The position numbers and the translations under genes were made by a program. DNA of 64,000 nucleotides from Eledone cirrhosa (lineage: Eukaryota). Below the pieces are notes generated by a model that did no database searches, was not told where the DNA came from, and was given only the letters and a program-made list of their open reading frames with translations. The stretch covers positions 407,774,001-407,838,000 of the forward strand of contig OZ024740.1 of the NCBI GenBank assembly GCA_964016885.1, read 5' to 3'. Below are positions 327 to 51,833 of the stretch, in pieces. Each line of letters opens with the position of its first letter. The first letter of the stretch is position 1.

Positions 327-447
327 GGAGGTGAGTTTTATTGTAGTACAATAAAGCAATGCAGATATCGGATAAGAAGCACTCTACAGTTTGTAGGACT
401 GGAGTATACATCATATAAGATCAAAAGATGGTTAAAGGAGTTCCATG

Positions 448-518
448 TATTTTATTATACGCATTTCAAAAACAAACATTATCATGCAATAATATTTGTG
501 TTTTCATCAGATAAAACA
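448..518 (-). ncRNA. Minimal type I hammerhead ribozyme
   Basis: Minus strand: TGTTTTAT-CTGATGA-[36 nt hairpin]-GAAA-TGCGTA-TA/ATAAAATA. Intact core, 8-bp stem I, near-palindromic stem III. Confidence 0.85.
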
Positions 519-1537
519 GGAGAACATGATATGAAGGCTAAAAAACACTTGTGGATAGTGCAGTTTTAAATCTACATATGAAAAGTGGTTTTAGATTGAT
601 GTGTGATATTGGGAAAAATATTTTATTTAGAGAGGGGGGGGTGGAAAGGATGAAAAAGGGGAGGAGATGAGAGGGAGAGATGGGTGATAGAGAGAAAGAG
701 ATAGTTTTTATAACTGAGAGGAGATATATTGTTTTACATAGAGAGGTTGAAAACCGTTGGAAGATAATGTATAAATTAAAAAAAATTTGAAAATTAACGA
801 AGGGAGGATATGTGCGAGGAAAAAATATTTTATTTAGGGAGGGTAATGTGGAAAGGATGAGAAAAGGGGGAGGAGATGAGAGTGAAGGTGGAGAGGGAGA
901 GATGGGTGATAGAGAGAAAGAGATAGTTTTTATAACTGAGAAAAAGATATATTGTTTTACATAGAGAGGTTGAGAACCGTTGGAAGATAATGTATAAATT
1001 AAAGGAATTTGAAAATTAACGAAGGGAATTTATGTATGAAGATAGAGAGAAAAAATAATAAATGTGGATGAATATTCTAACGTCAAAAAAAGTGTATGTT
1101 GATAAGTATTGTGGCAATTTCAAAATTAACGAAGAGAAAAATTATTAAGGTTTGTGTGTAGAAGGATTTGAGAAAAATAATGTGAAGTTAAAGTTTGTAT
1201 ATTGAAGGAATTGATAATATATGCGAATAAAGAGTTAATATGTATTAAGAATGAGTTCGTTGATGGGGAGAAAAAAATAATAAATTAAGGATGAAATTGA
1301 GATTAAAAAGATTTATGATAGAGAGAAAAAATAATAATGATTGCGGATGAATATTCTAACGTCAAAAAAACAAATGTATATGTTATGAAGGATTTTACAA
1401 GGTGAAGATAGAATGAGGGTAATGAGTAAACAAGTATTATAGAATGTATAATGCCCTTTAAAGTAAGGGTATATTTTAAAGAGGTGTATGTATATGTGCC
1501 TTTGAGAAAAGATTCTAAATTGATAACGAATTGAATA

Positions 1538-2671
1538 TTAACTGTATACTTTGTGAAAAGTCCTATGGAATTTATGCAGGCAGATAGAAAACAAATCTGT
1601 ACGTCTATTTATTATAGAATCTAGGTTAGAGATAATGGTAAATTTTTCATTTAGGCAGAGATTACAGATTTGAGATAGAGAGCTGTTCAAGTATGAGGAT
1701 GCAGAAGAAACCTTCTTCCAAAAGATGGTATATGTAATGTTTTTGTCTTTTAAGGACCATATGAGTTCTGAGAGAGCAGTGTTGGTTCTTTTAAGTTTGT
1801 ATTTGAAAAATGAATGATGATTATAGAGACGAGCTTTAAAAGAGGTGGAAGTGGAGCCAAAATAGGTGAAGGAATTGGTGCTAGTTATAATTTTACATTC
1901 ATAAATTAAGTTTTTATCGAGACAATGGTTGTTGAGAGGACATTTATTTTTAATGCGGCATTTGCAATTAGAGAGATTATTAATGAGTGACCTAGTGTTA
2001 TCTATAGAAGGAATTGGATTGGAGAAGTTGTTTGCGATAGGAATAATAGGAATAATAGTTTCTTGATTTAGAGTTGGATTATGAACATTTAGCGAAGTTG
2101 TGTTTGACGTTGTATTTGGGTTTACATAAGTTAGCCTAGGGTTTACAATGACGTCGGGAGTACTATTACTGTTATTATGAAATTCAATGTTGGAAGGAAG
2201 AGATTTAGTATTTAGTATTTTATTGTTGTGTTTAGAGATGATGTTGCAAATATTGGAGGATGTAGAATAAGAAAATTTGATGGTGTGTTTGTTAAATATT
2301 TTACTCTAGATATGTGAGGGAGGGAAGCATTTATTTAAGGCACTAAAAAATAATTTAGGAATATTGTTATTAATAGAGATGGAGAAAGGAGCATTATACC
2401 AGATTATGATTTTGTATCTAGGTCTTTTATTAAAATTATTGGAATGATCATGATTAATTATTCTACTGTAAGTTTTTTTAGAATTTGTTTCTTTACTATA
2501 TTTGATTTTATCTGGATAGCCGGCTTTAGAAAGTGCGTTATTATAGTAATTGGCGTTAGCATCAAAGATGTTTTTATTAGAGGATATGTTAGATATTCTT
2601 TTTCCAATATTACTAACTATAGCATTCTTGATATTGGTAGGATGGTTAGATTTAAAGTTAACATAATTTAG
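1538..2671 (-). pseudogene. PLE ORF C-terminal part (RT thumb, linker, GIY-YIG endonuclease, terminal Cys/His motif), one internal TAG
   Basis: Manual translation; absent from the ORF track because it has no Met. LNYVNFKSNHPTNIK...IIWYNAPFS...FNKHTIKFSYS...CKCRIKNKCPLNNHCLDKNLIYECKI...TYFGSTSTSFKARLYNH...ICNLCLNEK...LFSICLHK. Stop at 2306-2308. Confidence 0.9.
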
Positions 2672-2947
2672 TTTTCAAATTTTTTTTATTTTATAAATTA
2701 TCTTCCAACGGTTTTCAACCTCTCTATGTAAAACAATATATCTCCTCTCAGTTATAAAAACTATCTCTTTCTCTCTATCACCCATCTCTCCCTCTCATCT
2801 CCTCCCCTTTTTCATCCTTTCCACCCCCCCCCTCTCTAAATAAAATATTTTCCCCAATATCACACATCAATCTAAAACCACTTTTCATATGTTGATTTAA
2901 AACTGCACTATCCACAAGTGTTTTTTAGCCTTCATATCATGTTCTCC

Positions 2948-3018
2948 TGTTTTATCTTATGAAAACACAAATATTATTGCATGATGATGTTTGTTTTTGA
3001 AATGCGCATAATAAAATA
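2948..3018 (+). ncRNA. Hammerhead copy in the inverted pseudo-LTR, core mutated (CTTATGA)
   Basis: TGTTTTAT-CTTATGA-hairpin-GAAA-TGCGCA-TA/ATAAAATA. G-to-T change at 2958 in the catalytic core. Confidence 0.75.
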
Positions 3019-3065
3019 CATGGAACTCCTTTAACCATCTTTTGATCTTATATTATATATATATA

Positions 3066-7329: not shown

Positions 7330-9651
7330 CATCATCATCATCATCAGGTTTAGCGTCCGTGTTCCACGCTTGCATGGGTTTGGACGGGGGTTTTCCCACT
7401 TGAGGCAAGAGTGGTTGTCTTGCTCGCATAGGACTGTCTGGCGGGTTTTCTACAGTTGGATGCCCTTCCTAACACCAACCACATTTACAGTGTGGGGCTG
7501 GGAGGTTTTTACCGTGTTGCCTACACGGCCACATTACAGCGTGGACTGTCTGGCGGGTTTTCTACAGCTGGATGCCCTTCCTAACACCAACCACATTTAC
7601 AGTGTGGGGCTGGGAGATTTTTACCGTGTTGCCTACACGGCCACATTTACAGCGTGGACTGTGTGTTTTTTTGTCGTGACATCTACACGATCTCATTTGT
7701 TTCGGCCTGGATGTTGTGGGACCAACATAACTTTACATTGAAAGGGGCGGTGTGGATGGGGTGGAGGTGGTGGGACGGGGGGTGTTTTGATAGAGATGCC
7801 TACTGACTGTAGTAGGTTTTTACTTTGTATTTAGGTAAGGCGGGTCTTCTCTATTACTGAGTACCGCCAAAGGTCTCGGTCCAGTGACATTGTCTTGGAG
7901 AGGTGTAAGCGTGTGAGGTCGGAATTTATCAGCTCGTCCCATGTTTTTTCTGGGTCTGCCTACTCCGTGGCTACCGTCTATCTTTATTTCCCTGCACTTT
8001 GTTATACAGCTGTCGTCTTTCATGCGCATCACGTGACCGTACCAACGTAGCCTTCTCTCGAGTAAACAACATCTGATCCCTCTTATTTCTAATTTTTTCC
8101 TTAGTTCGTTTATGCTTTGCCGTTCACGTATATTACTATTGCACATCCAGCGGAGCATGCAAGCTTCGTTCCTCTCTAGTCTGCGTATATCCTCTGCACA
8201 CAATGCCCAGGTCTCACTGCCATGCAGCATTGCTGTTCGTATGGAGGCATCGTATAACCTGCCTTTCATTTTTAGGGAGAACCCTCTAGCGGCTAATAGT
8301 GGTATAAGCTCTCTGAACTTTTTCCATCCAGTTCTGACTCTAGCTACTGTACTTTCAGAGCACCCTCCCCCACTGTTGATTTTGTCACCCAGGTAACGGA
8401 AGCTGTCCACTATTTCTATAGAACCCTCTGCGCAGTTGAAGGAGCTAGTATTTTGTGGGCACTTGCTGCTACTTATTGCACCAGAGCACCGGCCATATGT
8501 AAAATCTATGTTCTTAGTTAGCTTACCTGTGATCCCACTACATCTTTTATGCACCCATACTTTGCATTTGGGACATAAAATAGAGTTTCTACCTACGCCT
8601 TTCCTACACACTGAGCATGTCCATTTCCCAGAAGGGACCGCCGCCTTATTTTCTTTCCTACAAACTAGAACTTTAGTCTTAGCCAGGTTAATTTTAAGGC
8701 CTTTTGATTCTAGGCCGTGCTTCCATGTTTGGAATTTCTTCTCTAGTTCGGTCATTGATTCAGCTATGAGCATTAGATCATCTGCGTATAGGAGTTCCCA
8801 TGGGCAGCCGGGCTTGAACTCCTCTGTTATAGCCTGAAGGGCAATAATAAATAGTAGGGGGCTAAGAACAGAGCCCTGATGGACACCAACTTTTACGCTA
8901 AACTCTTCACTATATTCGTTGTTAATTCTAACCTTACTGACTGTTTCTTTATACATGGCTTGTATAGCTCTCACAAGCCATTTGTTGACACCTAGTTTTC
9001 TAAGAGACCACCAGATAATGGAACGGGGGACTCTGTCGAAGGCTTTCTCCAAGTCGACGAAAGCTAAGTATAGGGGTTTACTTTTAGCTAGGTACTTCTC
9101 CTGTAGTTGTCGTACAATGAAAAGAGCGTCTGTGGTACTTTTGCCTGACACAAACCCGAACTGCATTTCATCTAGATCAATTCTCTCTCTGATTAGTTGC
9201 GCTATTACTTTTTCCGTGACCTTCATGACCTGGTCGATTAATTTAATGCCTCTATAGTTACTCCTATCTAGGGCATCTCCTTTTCCCTTATAGCAGTTAA
9301 CGATGATGCTGCTACGCCAGTCCTTCGGAACAACCCCATTCTGTACGACTTGGTTAACTATCCAGGTGACCATGGTGTGTCCCACCGAACCAGATGCCTT
9401 CAGCATCTCAGCAACTATTTCCGAAGGACCAGCCGCCTTACCCGTCTTCATATCTTTGATTGCCTTGCTTAATGTACTACCCTGGCCTAACACTGCTGGT
9501 CCCTCTATTGGGTCGATGTGGGGGAGACTGTCTTTCTCCCATTTGTTCTCCTCATTTAGAAGCCTTTCATAGTGACACTTCCAAGCTACCTTCTTATCAG
9601 CATCGGTTATGGCAAGTATGCCATCATCGTTAAGTACACACTTCTCCCCGA
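7330..9651 (-). mobile_element. RTE LINE subfamily C, 5'-truncated
   Basis: RT ORF (YADD) nearly identical to the 3' part of 44334-47579. Homology stops at the (TA)n at 9652. Frameshift near 7945. 3' UTR has a 112-bp duplication and a (GAT)n tail. Confidence 0.95.
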
Positions 9652-10054: not shown

Positions 10055-10488
<434 letters not shown>

Positions 10489-17773: not shown

Positions 17774-17969
17774 ATAAGATGAAAAGATGGTTAAAAGAGT
17801 TCCATGTATTTTATTATGCGCATTTCAAAAACAAATATCATCATGCAATAACATTTGTGTTTTCATCAGATAAAATAGGAAGACATGATATGAAGGTTAA
17901 AAACACTTGTGGATAGTGCAGTTTTAAATCAACATAAGCTTTATTGTACTACAATAAAACTCACCTCCT
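17774..17969 (+). mobile_element. Mini-PLE of the same family as 327-3052
   Basis: 17774-17936 matches about 414-578. 17938-17969 is the reverse complement of 327-358. TA tracts on both sides. Confidence 0.85.
17807..17877 (-). ncRNA. Minimal type I hammerhead ribozyme, intact
   Basis: TATTTTAT-CTGATGA-[36 nt hairpin]-GAAA-TGCGCA-TA/ATAAAATA. Confidence 0.88.
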
Positions 17970-18306: not shown

Positions 18307-18497
18307 TATTAAAATAACAGATTAAAGTTTAAGCAAATAATCGCTGCTTTCACCCTTAACAGGATCAAAGCAGTGATTCTTTGCTTAAACTTTAATCTGT
18401 TATTTTAATAAATATTTGGTTGTTATATATTTTATACATATTTATCGTTATCAAGACCTCTTTGGATTTTTGTCTTCACATTTATTATTATAACTAT
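18307..18497 (+). mobile_element. Fold-back mini-element in (TA)n, probable PLE footprint
   Basis: 44-bp inverted arms 18307-18350 / 18367-18410 plus a ~87-bp tail. A shorter relative is at 50386-50465. Confidence 0.6.
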
Positions 18498-18539: not shown

Positions 18540-18874
18540 ATCATCATCATCATTTTATGTCTGCTTTTCCCTGCTTGCAAGGGTGGGACGGGAACTGATT
18601 CTGGCTTGATTTCTACAGCTGGATGCCCTTCCTAACACCAACCTCATTTACAGTGAATGCTGGGTGCTTTTTTCCGTGGCACCTCCACGACCACTTTGCC
18701 GTGGAATGATATGGACCCCAGTCCCTACCATCTCATTTCTACAGCTGAGTAAACTGGAGCAATGTGAAATAAAGTGTCTTGCTCAAGGACACAACACATC
18801 ACCCAGTCTGAGAATTGAACTCACAACATTTCGATTGCAAGGCCAATGCTCTAACCACTAAGCCATGTGCCTCC
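18540..18874 (-). mobile_element. CORE-SINE family 1, RTE-A-type tail
   Basis: Reverse-complement match to 10947-11293. Confidence 0.9.
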
Positions 18875-27665: not shown

Positions 27666-27864
27666 ATAAAGTTTATCCAGGGTTCAATCGGGGGTAACCA
27701 CAATAAGTAATGTACTCAATACATAGCAGAGTATAAATATTTAATATAGAAAAGGCTTCTACAAGACTAGAACTGTTTCATTCGAGAGAAATCATCAGGA
27801 AGCCCTGATGATTTCTCCTGAATGAAACAGTTCTAGTCCTGTAGAAGCCTTTTCTATATTAAAT
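27666..27864 (-). mobile_element. Fold-back mini-PLE with back-to-back hammerhead cores
   Basis: About 60-bp arms 27740-27799 / 27804-27863, each with CTGATGA-TTTC...GAAT-GAAAC. ~75-bp unpaired tail. Relative at 51706-51833. Confidence 0.7.
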
Positions 27865-28049
27865 TCTCCGAAGGTATTTTAGCCTACATATTGTTGTTAA
27901 TATTAATGATGTTCCCTGCTGTATTAGCGATAAATTTTCGAGGGTTTTTCTTAGTAGTTTTCATGACGTTATTATTGTTAATTTTACTGATGTAGTATTA
28001 ACTTGGATATTTACCATGCGGTATTCTAATTCTATTGTATCTCTCTCAG

Positions 28050-31000
28050 TTATTTACCATGCGACCCTCAGTTCCTACCTCACATCCCTCCCCCCCCCAC
28101 CCCCACATACCACCATAGTCTATTCGACCAATCAAACCTAGCATGCCATTTCCACTGCTGCTGCTACTACCTGCCTAACTAACTCTCTCCTCCTCTGGCG
28201 CATCCCAACACACCCTGCCATTACCCCACCACCACTGTTCTTCTAGCCCTCAATTTTCCCACCGTTATGGATGGATGAGCTGAGAATACATTTGAGCAAC
28301 TCTGAATCAATAGATGAAATATGAATCTGCGAGCTACCAAGCACCCACGTGAAGCGCCAACCCAGAGACCCTCCCCTACGAGTGTCGACAAATGCCCAAA
28401 ACTCCGAGTTGGTACCATAAATGTAGGCTCAATGAAAGGAAGAGCAGGAGAAATCGTAGAAATGCTAGAGCGAAAGGAAGTTGATGTATGCTATGTGCAA
28501 GAGACTAGATGGAGAGGAGGGTCTGCTAGAGTCCTTGTAGGAAAAAGCCAGTGCTACAAATTTTTCTGGGTGGGAAATGACGATGGGATGGGTGGTGTAG
28601 GTATACTACTAGCTGACAAGTGGGTAGATAAAGTAATCTCAGTGTACAGGGTAAATGCAAGAATCATTAAACTCAGACTAGTCCTGAATAAGACAATTAC
28701 CACAATAATATCAGCTTACGCACCCCAATCGGGGCTGCCAGACGAACTTAAGGATAGGTTTTACGAGTCCCTAATACACACTACTGCTCTAACAGACGAC
28801 AAGGACTTCCTAATCATTGCAGGAGATTTTAACGGACACGTAGGTAAACACTGCGACGGCTTCAATAGAGTACATGGAGGCCATGGAGTTGGCACAAGGA
28901 ATGAGGAAGGATTCAGACTTCTAGAATTCTGCGACGCCAATGACATGTCGATATGTAACACAAACTTTAAAAAACCTGACAACCACCTGATCACCTATAG
29001 ATCAGGGGAGCACTCTAGTCAGTTAGATTTTATCCTCATCAGAGGACGTGACAGATGGACGGTCGTAAACACAAAAGCCTTCCCTAGTGAGGAATGTACA
29101 TCCCAACATAGCTTAGTTGTCAGCGACCTCACGGTCAGAACTAGACGAGCCCTGAAACAGAGGCCAACCTGGAGAAGAAAGATCTGGAAGCTGAAAGTCC
29201 CCTCAACCAGTAACAGATTTAAAGATATTTTACTCAACGCCTACGACAGTAAAGAAGAACAGATAGAGACATTTAACGTAGAAGAGAACTGGGAGTTCCT
29301 AAAAAATAACTTACTAGAGGCGACGGATGGGGTTTGTGGCTGGAGTAAGACCTCAAGCAGGAGGAGAGTGACTTGGTGGTGGAACAATAAGGTAGATGAA
29401 GCAGTCAAGGCCAAGAGACAGGCATGGAAAGAATGGAAGAACGGGGGGAGCAGGGTACATTACATAGAGACCAAGAGGGAAGCTAGGCGACAAGTATACT
29501 TAGCTAGGAGGGAAGCAGAGGATAGAAAATTCAAGCATGTTTTACAACGTGAGGACCAGAAACAGGAGGTATTCAAGATTGCGAGGCAGTGTGTCAGAGA
29601 TAGTTGTGATGTCATTGGAGAGAAGTGTATCCGGAATGATAAAGGTGAGCTTGCCCTCACAAGTGCTGAGAAGAAAGATGCATGGAAGAGTCATTATGAT
29701 AGATTACTAAATGAGGAGAATGCATGGGAAGAAGAGACCCTACCCCATGTAGACCCTATAGAGGGACCAGCAGTACAAGTCAGCGGCAGCATAGTAAGTA
29801 AGGCAATCAGAGATATGAAGATGGAGAAGGCAACCGGTCCATCGGGTATAGCTGCCGAGATGCTGAAGGCATCTGGGTCTGTAGGTCACACTATAACCAC
29901 ACGTATCGTTAACCAGGTAATACTAGAAGGGGCCATACCAAAAGATTGGTGCAGTAGCATCATTGTCAACTGCTACAAAGGTAAAGGCGATGCACTAGAT
30001 AGAGGAAACTATAGAGGTATAAAGTTGATGGACCAGGTCATGAAAGTAACAGAAAGAGTTATAGCACAGCTGATTAGGGACCGGGTGAATATAGACGAGA
30101 TGCAATTTGGGTTTGTACCAGGGAGAGGCACCACTGATGCCCTCTTCCTTGTGAGGCAATTACAGGAAAAGTACCTAGCTAAAAGTAAGCCACTCTACTT
30201 GGCATTTGTCGACCTTGAGAAAGCCTTTGACAGAGTTCCACGTGCAGTAATCTGGTGGGCTCTTAGAAAACTAGGAGTAGATGAATGGCTTGTGAAAGCG
30301 GTACAAGCCATGTATAGGGGAGCAGTCAGCAAAGTTAGGATTAGCAATGAGTATAGCGAGGAATTTAGCGTACAGGTTGGGGTCCACCAGGGCTCTGTTC
30401 TTAGCCCTCTCCTGTTCATCATAGTCCTGCAGGCAATAACGGAGGAGTTTAAGACCGGATGCCCATGGGAACTCCTGTATGCTGATGACCTCGCACTCAT
30501 AGCTGAATCTATGGTAGAACTAGAGAATAAATTCCAAACCTGGAAGCAGGGACTAGAGAGAAAGGGCCTCAAAGTCAACATGACAAAGACTAAGGTCCTT
30601 GTAAGTAGACGAGAAAACAGAACCCAGATCCCCTCAGGGAAATGGCCTTGCTCAGTATGTAGGAAAGGTGTAGGTAGGAACTCCATTCTCTGCCCCAAAT
30701 GCAAACAATGGGTACACAAGAGATGTAGCGGGATCTCAGGAAGCTTAATTAAGAATATAGGATTCACATGCAGCAGCTGTGCTGAAACAGCAAGCAAACA
30801 GCCACAGGAAACAAGTACCACCAATCTCTGGGAGGGCCCTGTAGAAACAGTAGACAGCTTCTGCTACCTAGGTGACCAAATTAGCAACGGAGGTGGGTGC
30901 TCAGAAAGTACAATAACTAGGGTAAGAACGGGATGGAAGAAGTTTAGGGAACTACTACCACTGCTAGCTGCAAAAGGCTTCTCCCTCAGAATGAAAGGCA

Positions 31001-40320: not shown

Positions 40321-41081
40321 GGCTTACTTTTAGCTAGGTACTTTTCCTGTAATTGCCTCACAAGGAAGAGGGCATCAGTGGTGCCTCTTCCTGGTACAAA
40401 CCCAAATTGCATCTCGTCTATATTCACCCGGTCCCTAATCAGCTGTGCTATAACGCTTTCTGTTACTTTCATGACCTGGTCCATCAACTTTATACCTCTA
40501 TAGTTTCCTCTATCTAGTGCATCGCCTTTACCTTTGTAGCAGTTGACAATGATGCTACTGCACCAATCTTTTGGTATGGCCCCTTCTAGTATTACCTGGT
40601 TAATGATACGTGTGGTTATAGTGTGACCTACAGACTCAGATGCCTTCAGCATCTCGGCAGCTATACCCGATGGACCGGTTGCCTTCCCCATCTTCATATC
40701 TTTGATTGCCTTACTTACTACGCTGCTGCTGACTTGTACTGCTGGTCCCTCTATAGGGTCTACTTGGGGTAGGGTCTCTTCTTCCCATGCATTCTCCTCA
40801 TTTAGTAATCTATCATAATGACTCTTCCATGCATCTTTCTTCTCAGCACTTGTGAGGGCAAGCTCACCTTTATCATTCCGGATACACTTCTCTCCAATGA
40901 CATCACAACTATCTCTGACACACTGCCTCGCAATCTTGAATACCTCCTGCTTCTGGTCCTCACGTTGTAAAACATGCTTGAATTTTCTATCCTCTGCTTC
41001 CCTCCTAGCTAAGTATACTTGTCGCCTAGCTTCCCTCTTGGTCTCTATGTAATGTACCCTGCTCCCCCCGTTCTTCCATTC
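40321..41081 (-). mobile_element. RTE subfamily B internal fragment fused to the 5' end of the C copy
   Basis: Near-identical to 29431-30191. Confidence 0.92.
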
Positions 41082-43004: not shown

Positions 43005-43329
43005 GGAGGTACATAGCTTAGTGGTTTGAGCATTGGCCTTGCAATCAAAAGGTTGTGAGTTCAATTCTCAGACCGGGTGATGTGTTGTTTCCTTGAGCAA
43101 GACACTTTATTTCACATTGCTCCAGTTTACTCAGCTGTAGAAATGAGATGATAGAGACTGGGGTCACTATCATTCCACTGCAAAGTGGTCGTGGAGGTGC
43201 CACGGCAAAAAAGCACCCAGCACTCACTGTAAATGAGGTTGGTGTTAGGAAGGGCATCCAGCTGTAGAAATCAAGCCAGAATCAGTTCCCGTCCCACCCT
43301 TGCAAGCAGGGAAAAGCGGACGTAAAATG

Positions 43330-48362: not shown

Positions 48363-48701
48363 ATGGCTTAGTGGTTAGAGCATTGGCCTTGCAATCGAAA
48401 GTTGTGAGTTCAATTCTCAGACCGGGTGATGTGTTGTTTCCTTGAGCAAGACACTTTATTTCACATTGCTCCAGTTTACTCAGCTGTAGAAATGAGATGA
48501 TAGGGACTGGGATCTCTATCATTCCACTGCAAAGTGGTCGTGGAGGTGCCACGGCAAAAAAGCACCCAGCACTCACTGTAAATGAGGTTGTTGTTAGGAA
48601 GGGCATCCAGCTGTAGAAATCAAGCCAGAATCAGTTCCCGTCCCACCCTTGCAAGCAGGGAAAAGTGGACGTAAAATGATGATGATGATGATGATGATGA
48701 T
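48363..48701 (+). mobile_element. CORE-SINE family 1, RTE-A-type tail
   Basis: Match to 10947-11293. A tail-only insertion follows at 48989-49042. Confidence 0.9.
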
Positions 48702-50343: not shown

Positions 50344-50388
<45 letters not shown>

Positions 50389-50512
50389 TAAAATAACAGA
50401 TTAAAGTTTAAGCAAAGAATCGAGCCCTCTTTGGATTTTAGTCTTCAAATTTATTATTATTACTATATATATATATATATATATATTTTATATATAAACA
50501 TATATTATATAT

Positions 50513-50900
50513 GGAGGCACATGGCTTAGTGGTTAGAGCATTGGGCTTGCATTCGAAAGGTTGTGAGTTCAATTCTCAGACCGGGTGATGTGTTGTTTCC
50601 TTGAGCAAGATACTTTATTTCACATTGCTCCAGTTTACTCAGCTGTAGAAATGAGATGATAGGGCTGGTGTCCCTATCATTCCACTGCAAAATGGTCGTG
50701 GAGGTGCCAGGGCAAAAAAATCACCAAGCCCACACTGTAAAGTGGACGTGTAGGCGCCACGAAAAAAAAGCACCCAGCACTCAATGCAAAAGAGGTTGGT
50801 GTTAGGAAGGGCATCCAGCTGTAGAAATCAAGCCAGAATCAGTTCCCGTCCCACCCTTGCAAGCAGGGAAAAGCGGACGTAAAATGATGATGATGATGAT
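50513..50900 (+). mobile_element. CORE-SINE family 1, two internal units, RTE-A-type tail
   Basis: Match to the other copies. Confidence 0.9.
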
Positions 50901-51705: not shown

Positions 51706-51833
51706 ATCAAGTTTAGTATAGAAATGGCTTTAGTCCTGTAGAAGACATTTATATATTAAACTTGATGTTTACACTCTACTAATGTATTGGGTACTTTACT
51801 TACTGTGGTTACCCCCAATTGAACTCGGGACTC
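51706..51833 (+). mobile_element. Older fold-back mini-PLE, family of 27666-27864
   Basis: Arms about 51706-51730 / 51742-51766. Tail similar to the reverse complement of 27666-27770. Confidence 0.6.

Follow-up and report, generated by a model that had tools for sequence, protein, structure and literature searches.

A stem-loop pair and fixed insertion ends suggest twin RNA-templated priming of truncated Hydra-clade PLEs in Eledone cirrhosa

The seven short loci analysed here lie in a 64-kb window of the Eledone cirrhosa genome (the whole stretch of DNA that was analysed), and we consider, with moderate confidence, that they are truncated Hydra-clade PLE insertions made by two RNA-templated primings, one for each nicked strand and each just 5' of one member of a stem-loop pair (SL1 and SL2). 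The more specific proposal, that the Hydra-clade 5' UTR holds an undescribed pair of covarying stem-loops about 60 nt apart and that a protein dimer binds both and primes 5' of each, is one for which we see even chances. An inverted, 5'-truncated copy with a tail is known PLE architecture, given the textbook PLE layout and the two fixed RT start sites reported in vitro (PMC11167929), whereas the paired stem-loops and where they sit, one at each end, look new.

Masked self-comparison and local alignments of the window recovered all seven sites listed in a first-pass annotation, which had expected at least four families, and grouped them into four by sequence: A (327–3052 and 17774–17969), B (10161–10372), C (18307–18497 and 50386–50465) and D (27666–27864, or D1, in mirror orientation relative to D2 at 51706–51833). 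The features of these loci are the following.

327–412, minus strand: family A tail (3' extension), boundary between 405 and 413
379–405, minus strand: SL1 in the family A tail, a variant with a C-G upper pair
413–797, minus strand: family A 3' end (pLTR), carrying a hammerhead motif of type I whose predicted cut lies at 456
1541–2674, minus strand: 5'-truncated Hydra-clade PLE ORF remnant with one in-frame stop, at 2306–2308
2668–3052, plus strand: arm of locus A1, inverted and tail-less, matching 413–797 at 97%, hammerhead core mutated
10161–10216, minus strand: family B inverted arm
10217–10240, plus strand: family B junction filler of 24 nt, identical to a stretch of an RTE-type LINE (9161–9184, 39200, 45663)
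10241–10372, plus strand: family B body with the 3' half of a hammerhead, predicted cut at 10275; tail 10294–10372, SL1 10301–10326
17774–17936, minus strand: family A arm alone, hammerhead motif intact, predicted cut at 17815; perhaps reaches about 17762
17938–17968, plus strand: last 31 nt of a family A tail, in a head-to-head joint with the arm; a similar joint occurs in reads
18307–18497, plus strand: family C hairpin and tail (arm 18307–18363, body to 18410, tail 18411–18497), half a hammerhead, SL1 absent
27666–27864, minus strand: family D1, tail 27666–27738 with the SL1 foot at 27732, arm 27802–27864
within 27666–27864, minus strand: family D1 body with a complete-looking hammerhead, predicted cut at 27760
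50386–50465, plus strand: family C arm (50386–50422) and the last ~45 nt of tail, no fold-back
51706–51833, plus strand: family D2, arm 51706–51731, body, tail 51767–51833 with the SL1 foot at 51773

A fold-back had been proposed for all seven sites. A true inverted partner exists at five of them, with a score reached by 0/500 shuffles, and the masked window holds four short-loop hairpins against 0–1 in each of 10 shuffles. At 17774–17969 and 50386–50465, arm and body have no inverted sequence in common, and 238 and 294 of 500 shuffles, respectively, score as high. These two loci consist of an antisense arm set head to head with only the last 31 or ~45 nt of tail; the free tail of 65–90 bp that had been described is therefore found where tails are full (~67–86 bp) and not here. 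Since two of the seven loci lack an inverted partner, the fold-back is one outcome of the process and not what defines it. All loci are single inversions, as self-comparison detected no tandem units at them.

The first-pass annotation had attributed the arm to second-strand synthesis, and this part of it is not supported: with no arm sequence in the body at two of the seven loci, the arm requires a sense-strand template from outside, which favours RNA as the template unless a later deletion took the partner. The alleles of locus A1 bear on the same question. Its two arms differ by 8 substitutions plus a gap, and they have an allele in common at 14/14 polymorphic sites (picked among 40 listed, with at least 64 more), while the 17774 arm differs from A1 at 5/8 of those family-polymorphic sites within its span; this agreement and this difference point to one template sequence per insertion. 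The common alleles also fit second-strand synthesis, or self-priming as outlined in the accessible part of PMC3846280, with the element's own cDNA or an antisense strand as the template, followed at some loci by one-sided deletion of the centre. The true inverted repeats at five loci also speak for self-priming. One-sided central deletion of palindromes is an established process, and we count it on the same side. The missing partner sequence, both at the two loci above and at one joint in the reads (394–694), weighs against it, as does the fact that second-strand synthesis on a first-strand cDNA would yield a direct and not an inverted orientation. A further point against it is the 24-nt filler at the family B junction (10217–10240), which lies in the cDNA sense of another retroelement, the RTE-type LINE; the filler fits a cross-element template jump by the RT that made the arm, but it could just as well have been copied from DNA 1 kb away, as a templated repair insertion. 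We therefore regard self-priming as rather improbable, and two RNA-templated primings fit the loci better than second-strand synthesis.

Most sites had been placed in or beside TA tracts, and in all four families the boundary indeed overlaps the TA flank by a few bases; the arm end at 27864 departs from this, as it adjoins non-TA sequence. Because the boundaries are AT-rich and overlap the TA target in this way, end offsets are blurred, in family A by up to ~8 nt (405 versus 413) across ~12 nt of TA-like sequence, and target duplications are unreadable in TA tracts. The unassigned, non-TA sequence at the D1 arm edge (27865–28395) precedes an RTE-type LINE. On its left, D1 is flanked by sequence that may be a mariner-type transposase remnant, which it resembles. 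Elsewhere in the window, two RTE-type pieces (29431–30191 and 40321–41081) are 98.7% identical, inverted and 10 kb apart, and one of them adjoins a copy of another RTE family. Weak tRNA-like matches at 18804–18867, 43014–43071, 48364–48420 and 50522–50579 fall inside a repeated family of 300–400 bp, probably tRNA-derived SINEs.

The assignment to PLEs comes most directly from family A, in which tail, hammerhead and ORF remnant are contiguous. The 5'-truncated remnant (minus strand, 2674–1541) encodes a thumb, an N-rich linker, a CxCx5C motif and a GIY-YIG-type endonuclease, the Pfam GIY-YIG match being weak (E 0.019, below the cut-off). A HMMER search with the remnant returned 4285 relatives; a word-index search among longer proteins gave no match to it. 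In the alignment, long relatives carry the thumb, linker and C-terminal endonuclease behind the RT, for which Pfam RVT_1 matched 1/10 long relatives, below the cut-off. The RWK and DKT motifs occur in relatives, the N-terminal RT region being missing from the window copy, and both pieces of the remnant match the 699-aa RWK/DKT ORF of metagenome locus L008 (E 1e-27 and 2e-20). Membership of family A in Neptune was rejected on the motif description in the accessible part of PMC8557442. The same source describes the Hydra clade by (TA)n targets, hammerheads, a CxCX5C linker, CxxC and CxH motifs and no CCHH cysteines. Family A has the CxCX5C linker and the CxxC and CxH motifs and lacks CCHH cysteines between the two tyrosine motifs; its endonuclease follows the RT thumb, as alignment to the C-terminus of RT-bearing proteins indicates, and a motif scan and reading of the flanks place a type I hammerhead near its 3' end and TA beside it. 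These sequence characters identify family A as a 5'-truncated Hydra-clade PLE insertion.

Families B, C and D, which have no ORF at their loci in the window, are likely Hydra-clade PLE insertions too. B and D are linked to RT-endonuclease ORFs indirectly, through the SL1 that they have in common with ORF-bearing loci, and their hammerheads are in the style of the Hydra table; C has half a hammerhead, TA flanks and the same layout, with neither ORF nor SL1. The idea that the sites are PLE footprints is thus upheld, and the suggested check of linking each tail to a PLE ORF gives a direct link for A, at most an indirect one through SL1 for B and D, and none for C. Two further observations concern family A. 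The linker of its RT-endonuclease contains an Asn-rich insert of ~70 aa (window ~1990–2230, minus strand), and N-rich inserts are also described for Adineta vaga PLEs in the accessible part of PMC3846280. Its 3' region carries a ~200-bp tandem duplication (611–813 and 818–1035), which is a family trait, since the back-jump also appears in reads of both raw runs and in the X1 contigs described below.

Hammerhead motifs travel with these footprints, as had been claimed. The motif scan found complete type I motifs at 456 and 17815 and a complete-looking one at 27760; all others are mutated or cut, and Rfam called no hammerhead in the window and nothing over the tails. With three predicted motifs of this kind, the suggestion that the footprints spread ribozymes is a weak one. 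It had also been proposed that the arm starts 25–45 nt past the hammerhead, whereas the distance from predicted cut to arm start is 20–43 nt in the window (~24 nt for family C), and that from predicted cut to tail-less end is 20–52 nt over all window and metagenome comparisons. The latter distance varies far more than that from the end to the stem-loop (1–7 nt), so the hammerhead cut was rejected as the ruler.

SL1 was traced in a metagenome scan with the thumb motif, which returned 33 loci, 17 of them with a hammerhead called downstream. SL1 follows the hammerhead in 13/17; among the remaining four, L008 carries SL1 in the overlapping start of its contig, L023 and L025 break off in TA immediately ahead of SL1, and L033 is without it. 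Within the 64-kb window, the SL1 pattern with pairing required has exactly four matches, one in each of the A, B, D1 and D2 tails, although the pattern was written after these tails had been inspected and they belong to the training set of the covariance model. The other two window hits of that model reach only E 2.5 and 3.6, and neither search found SL1 in family C. Antisense matches numbered 0 in 110,258 nt, and SL1 thus occurs on the sense strand only. Rfam gave no match to SL1 in the six loci tested.

The 14 aligned SL1 motifs, which are partly related and were also used to define the structure, are paired in 84/84 cells and show 13 double-sided changes, each value being reached by 0/500 shuffles. 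Their covariation score was likewise reached by 0/500, while for two pair-counting measures the shuffles did as well in 241 and 194 of 500 cases. RNAalifold predicts seven pairs around a 2-nt 3' bulge, with compensatory changes in four. As a control, viral contigs were scanned with the flanking pattern; of 106 matches, all taken as chance, 22 had both inner positions paired, compared with 14/14 SL1 motifs. Because the aligned rows are partly related, we take the covariation of SL1 as support and not as proof, and because G-U pairs occupy just 5/84 cells, the structure may instead be a DNA hairpin. Folding of whole tails gave no advantage over shuffles (five tails, z from -1.33 to +0.89), so single-sequence folding misses SL1.

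The second copy, SL2, is known from metagenome units and published consensus sequences; it was seen in none of the window's own families, which are represented by truncated copies alone. It is carried by the full-length metagenome units L008, L010, L011/L012 and L029 and also by L025, lies 60–63 nt after SL1 and ~20 nt before the ATG, and is followed by ORFs of 699–713 aa (in L011, 554 aa before the contig ends). The order along a full-length unit is hammerhead, SL1, ~60 nt, SL2, ATG and RT-endonuclease ORF; L008, L010 and L029 resemble collapsed tandem units, and L011 has the junction uncollapsed. Inspection by eye of six Hydra consensus sequences in the PMC8557442 supplement, as far as accessible, recognized the motif in four: Hydra-1_Ajap begins 2 nt ahead of SL1 and also carries SL2, SL1 lies inside the tail in Hydra-2_Ajap and Hydra-2_Amil, and variant forms occur in Hydra-1_Crog, one set in the tail and one 6 nt from the start. 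Neither SL1 nor SL2 was seen by eye in Hydra-1_Amil, which is incomplete, or in Hydra-1_Obim. An SL1-like match in a non-Hydra consensus of that accessible supplement may indicate other PLE clades or chance. Searches of openly available papers and of the text of that supplement retrieved no description of the pair.

Insertion ends keep a narrow distance from these stem-loops. Tail-less and tailed copies were set against each other in eight comparisons, which amount to seven independent loci because L023 and L025 have the same flank, and in 8/8 the tail-less end lies 1–7 nt before the foot of SL1. Tail ends lie 2–6 nt before SL2 in the 3/3 metagenome families where both forms occur, namely 4 nt (L010/L016), 2 nt (L028/L032 against L008) and 6 nt (L029); L021 and L006 break off at roughly this point, and L027 and L001 have no exact placement. 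In A, B and D, the fixed end lies just 5' of SL1, which likely marks where the RT starts on the RNA. The tail-less ends of L023/L025 belong to an ORF-bearing copy, so the downstream site is not used by every body. The Hydra insertion at L025 (654–3160) lies in TA and is almost exactly one unit long: its start falls inside SL1 and its end 1 nt short of SL1, as a circular or tandem template RNA would lead one to expect.

Fixed ends could also arise by plain microhomology, with TA-rich 3' ends of the target annealing to AU-rich spots on the RNA in ordinary twin priming and the stem-loops being there for packaging, translation or endonuclease recognition. The few-base TA overlap at the boundaries of all four families, and the ~12 nt in A, agree with this, and twin priming of L1 gives the same inversion-with-deletion product according to the accessible part of PMC2837659. 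However, the arms of D1 and L001 adjoin non-TA flanks and still hold a 5–6 nt offset from SL1; AU-rich spots are common along these RNAs, yet the ends pile at one place; and the Poseidon start sites are not homologous to the cut DNA (PMC11167929). We judge microhomology unlikely, both as the source of the ends and with any of these other purposes for the stem-loops, without dismissing it.

Reads gave an independent view of the ends. The window segment 327–810 was queried against two raw RAD-seq runs (X19 and X20, with 4468 and 5004 reads placed) and two contig sets (X1 and X4). Among the 24 loose ends listed, with at least 251 further ones, the largest outer piles lie at window positions 405 and 413 with mixed TA flanks (165 and 236 reads in X19, 106 and 285 in X20); the other listed piles are at 423, where the loose letters run into a tail variant, and at 419, with a single unique flank. 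RAD-seq samples loci near restriction sites, and for this reason and because of the loose ends beyond those 24, the piles are a biased picture and not a full histogram. Contigs of X1 and of X4, which has a second organism label, likewise end at 405. Opposite-strand joints, in contrast to these ends, vary on the inner side (354–578, 394–694 and 417–565). The joint 354–578 (96 reads with one start, X19 only) lies no more than 3 nt from the 17774 junction of the window, and 394–694 lacks partner sequence, as do 17774 and 50386. Outer ends are thus fixed and inner junctions variable; the reads of two samples support a fixed arm start in family A, in agreement with the earlier observation that within A and within C the arms begin at about the same base.

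MITEs or assembly artefacts bearing no relation to PLEs would be suggested by the position of all sites in or beside hard-to-assemble TA tracts and by the lack of ORFs for B, C and D in the window. This reading is largely refuted and in our view has a negligible probability: family A has a direct ORF link, the A1 arms differ by substitutions (8, besides the gap), independent reads give the same ends and nearly the same junction as at 17774, SL1 connects B and D to ORF-bearing loci, and the tail is one-sided, unlike the terminal inverted repeats of a MITE, with no inverted repeat at all at two loci.

A mechanism of twin priming can be drawn from the in vitro work on another clade (PMC11167929), in which the protein, a predicted dimer, nicks both strands of AT-rich DNA and extends both from internal RNA sites. 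In the Hydra clade, the protein would be bound to both stem-loops and prime cDNA just 5' of each, one for each target strand, with priming at the SL2 site giving the tail-bearing body and priming at the SL1 site the tail-less inverted arm. The tail would then equal the interval from SL1 to SL2, because the body is primed before SL2 and the arm before SL1. Both cDNAs would halt at variable lengths and be joined head to head; a hairpin would form only where the body extends beyond the arm start, and an inversion with a gap would result otherwise (17774, 50386). For arms that cross the hammerhead cut site, an uncleaved tandem or circular RNA template would be needed. Points against this best explanation include the absence of SL1 from family C and the initiation of Poseidon, in another clade, inside a stem loop rich in AC.

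The fixed ends might also be set before or after synthesis, either when an endonuclease resolves a DNA intermediate or when the RNA 3' end is processed at the stem-loop foot. The accessible part of PMC8557442 ascribes the tail to endonuclease-mediated resolution, the D. virilis tail is required for endonuclease recognition and RNA-seq reads have their ends at the same sites (PMC11167929), and the scarcity of G-U pairs would allow a DNA hairpin. The start sites of Poseidon in vitro are internal and unmoved by the RNA 3' end (PMC11167929), and SL1 is confined to the sense strand and tolerates G-U pairs, all of which count against such routes. We assign a low probability to them and keep twin RNA-templated priming as the preferred reading.

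Several known systems resemble the window loci in part. The standard PLE layout, an inverted 5'-truncated copy with a one-sided tail of 30–40 bp (accessible parts of PMC8557442, PMC3846280 and PMC8969392), is present at these loci, except that their tails measure 67–86 bp. Long tails seem to be a trait of the Hydra clade, based on our arithmetic on the lengths and hammerhead positions in the accessible Hydra table of PMC8557442, where most consensus ends fall 5–22 or 60–128 nt beyond the flank given there, three being outliers. The Hydra clade of that paper is alike in its C-terminal GIY-YIG-type endonuclease, linker and other motifs, (TA)n targets and type I hammerhead, and its Penelope-13_HM has a 5'-truncated inverted copy; it is unlike in the stated 30–40 bp tail, and the accessible text contains no stem-loop pair and no ends tied to stem-loops. 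In vitro, the Poseidon protein cleaves the two target strands and extends each of them, hammerhead cleavage being dispensable, from two internal RNA start sites whose interval makes up the tail (PMC11167929). Its element PAc of Anolis carolinensis is thus similar in the two starts, the use of both strands and the AT-rich targets, and among its own features are a dispensable hammerhead and a requirement for sequence 3' of the start sites; it differs in clade, in an ORF start inside the hammerhead, in a shorter tail and in initiation within one AC-rich stem loop, and the inverted products and a repeated binding motif are left unexplained in PMC11167929.

LINE-1 twin priming, as described in the accessible part of PMC2837659, also joins an inverted 5' piece to a sense 3' piece, with internal deletion, by two opposite-strand primings. 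Its first site is the poly(A) tail and its second a variable internal site, whereas in the window PLEs both sites are fixed, internal and beside conserved stem-loops, and the pieces often overlap into hairpins. Non-LTR retrozymes (accessible part of bioRxiv 10.64898/2026.07.22.740005) are likewise short PLE-derived, hammerhead-bearing sequences of animal genomes, but form tandem head-to-tail units with a ribozyme in each, unlike the single truncated inversions with mostly partial ribozymes found here. The accessible part of PMC4209133 notes pairs of hammerheads on opposite strands, as well as single motifs, that derive from truncated PLEs.

PLEs are the sister group of telomerase RTs, and the origin of their tail and inverted repeats is named as an open question in the accessible parts of PMC8557442 and PMC3846280. 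The SL1 model allows remnants of 80–200 bp without an ORF to be assigned to a clade, and a motif at both ends offers exact and cheap tests of the start sites on each strand. If twin priming beside the stem-loops is true, one RNA code would account for why PLEs have a tail and why its length is specific to the clade, and also for the inverted repeats and the fixed start of the arm, as a form of programmed twin priming.
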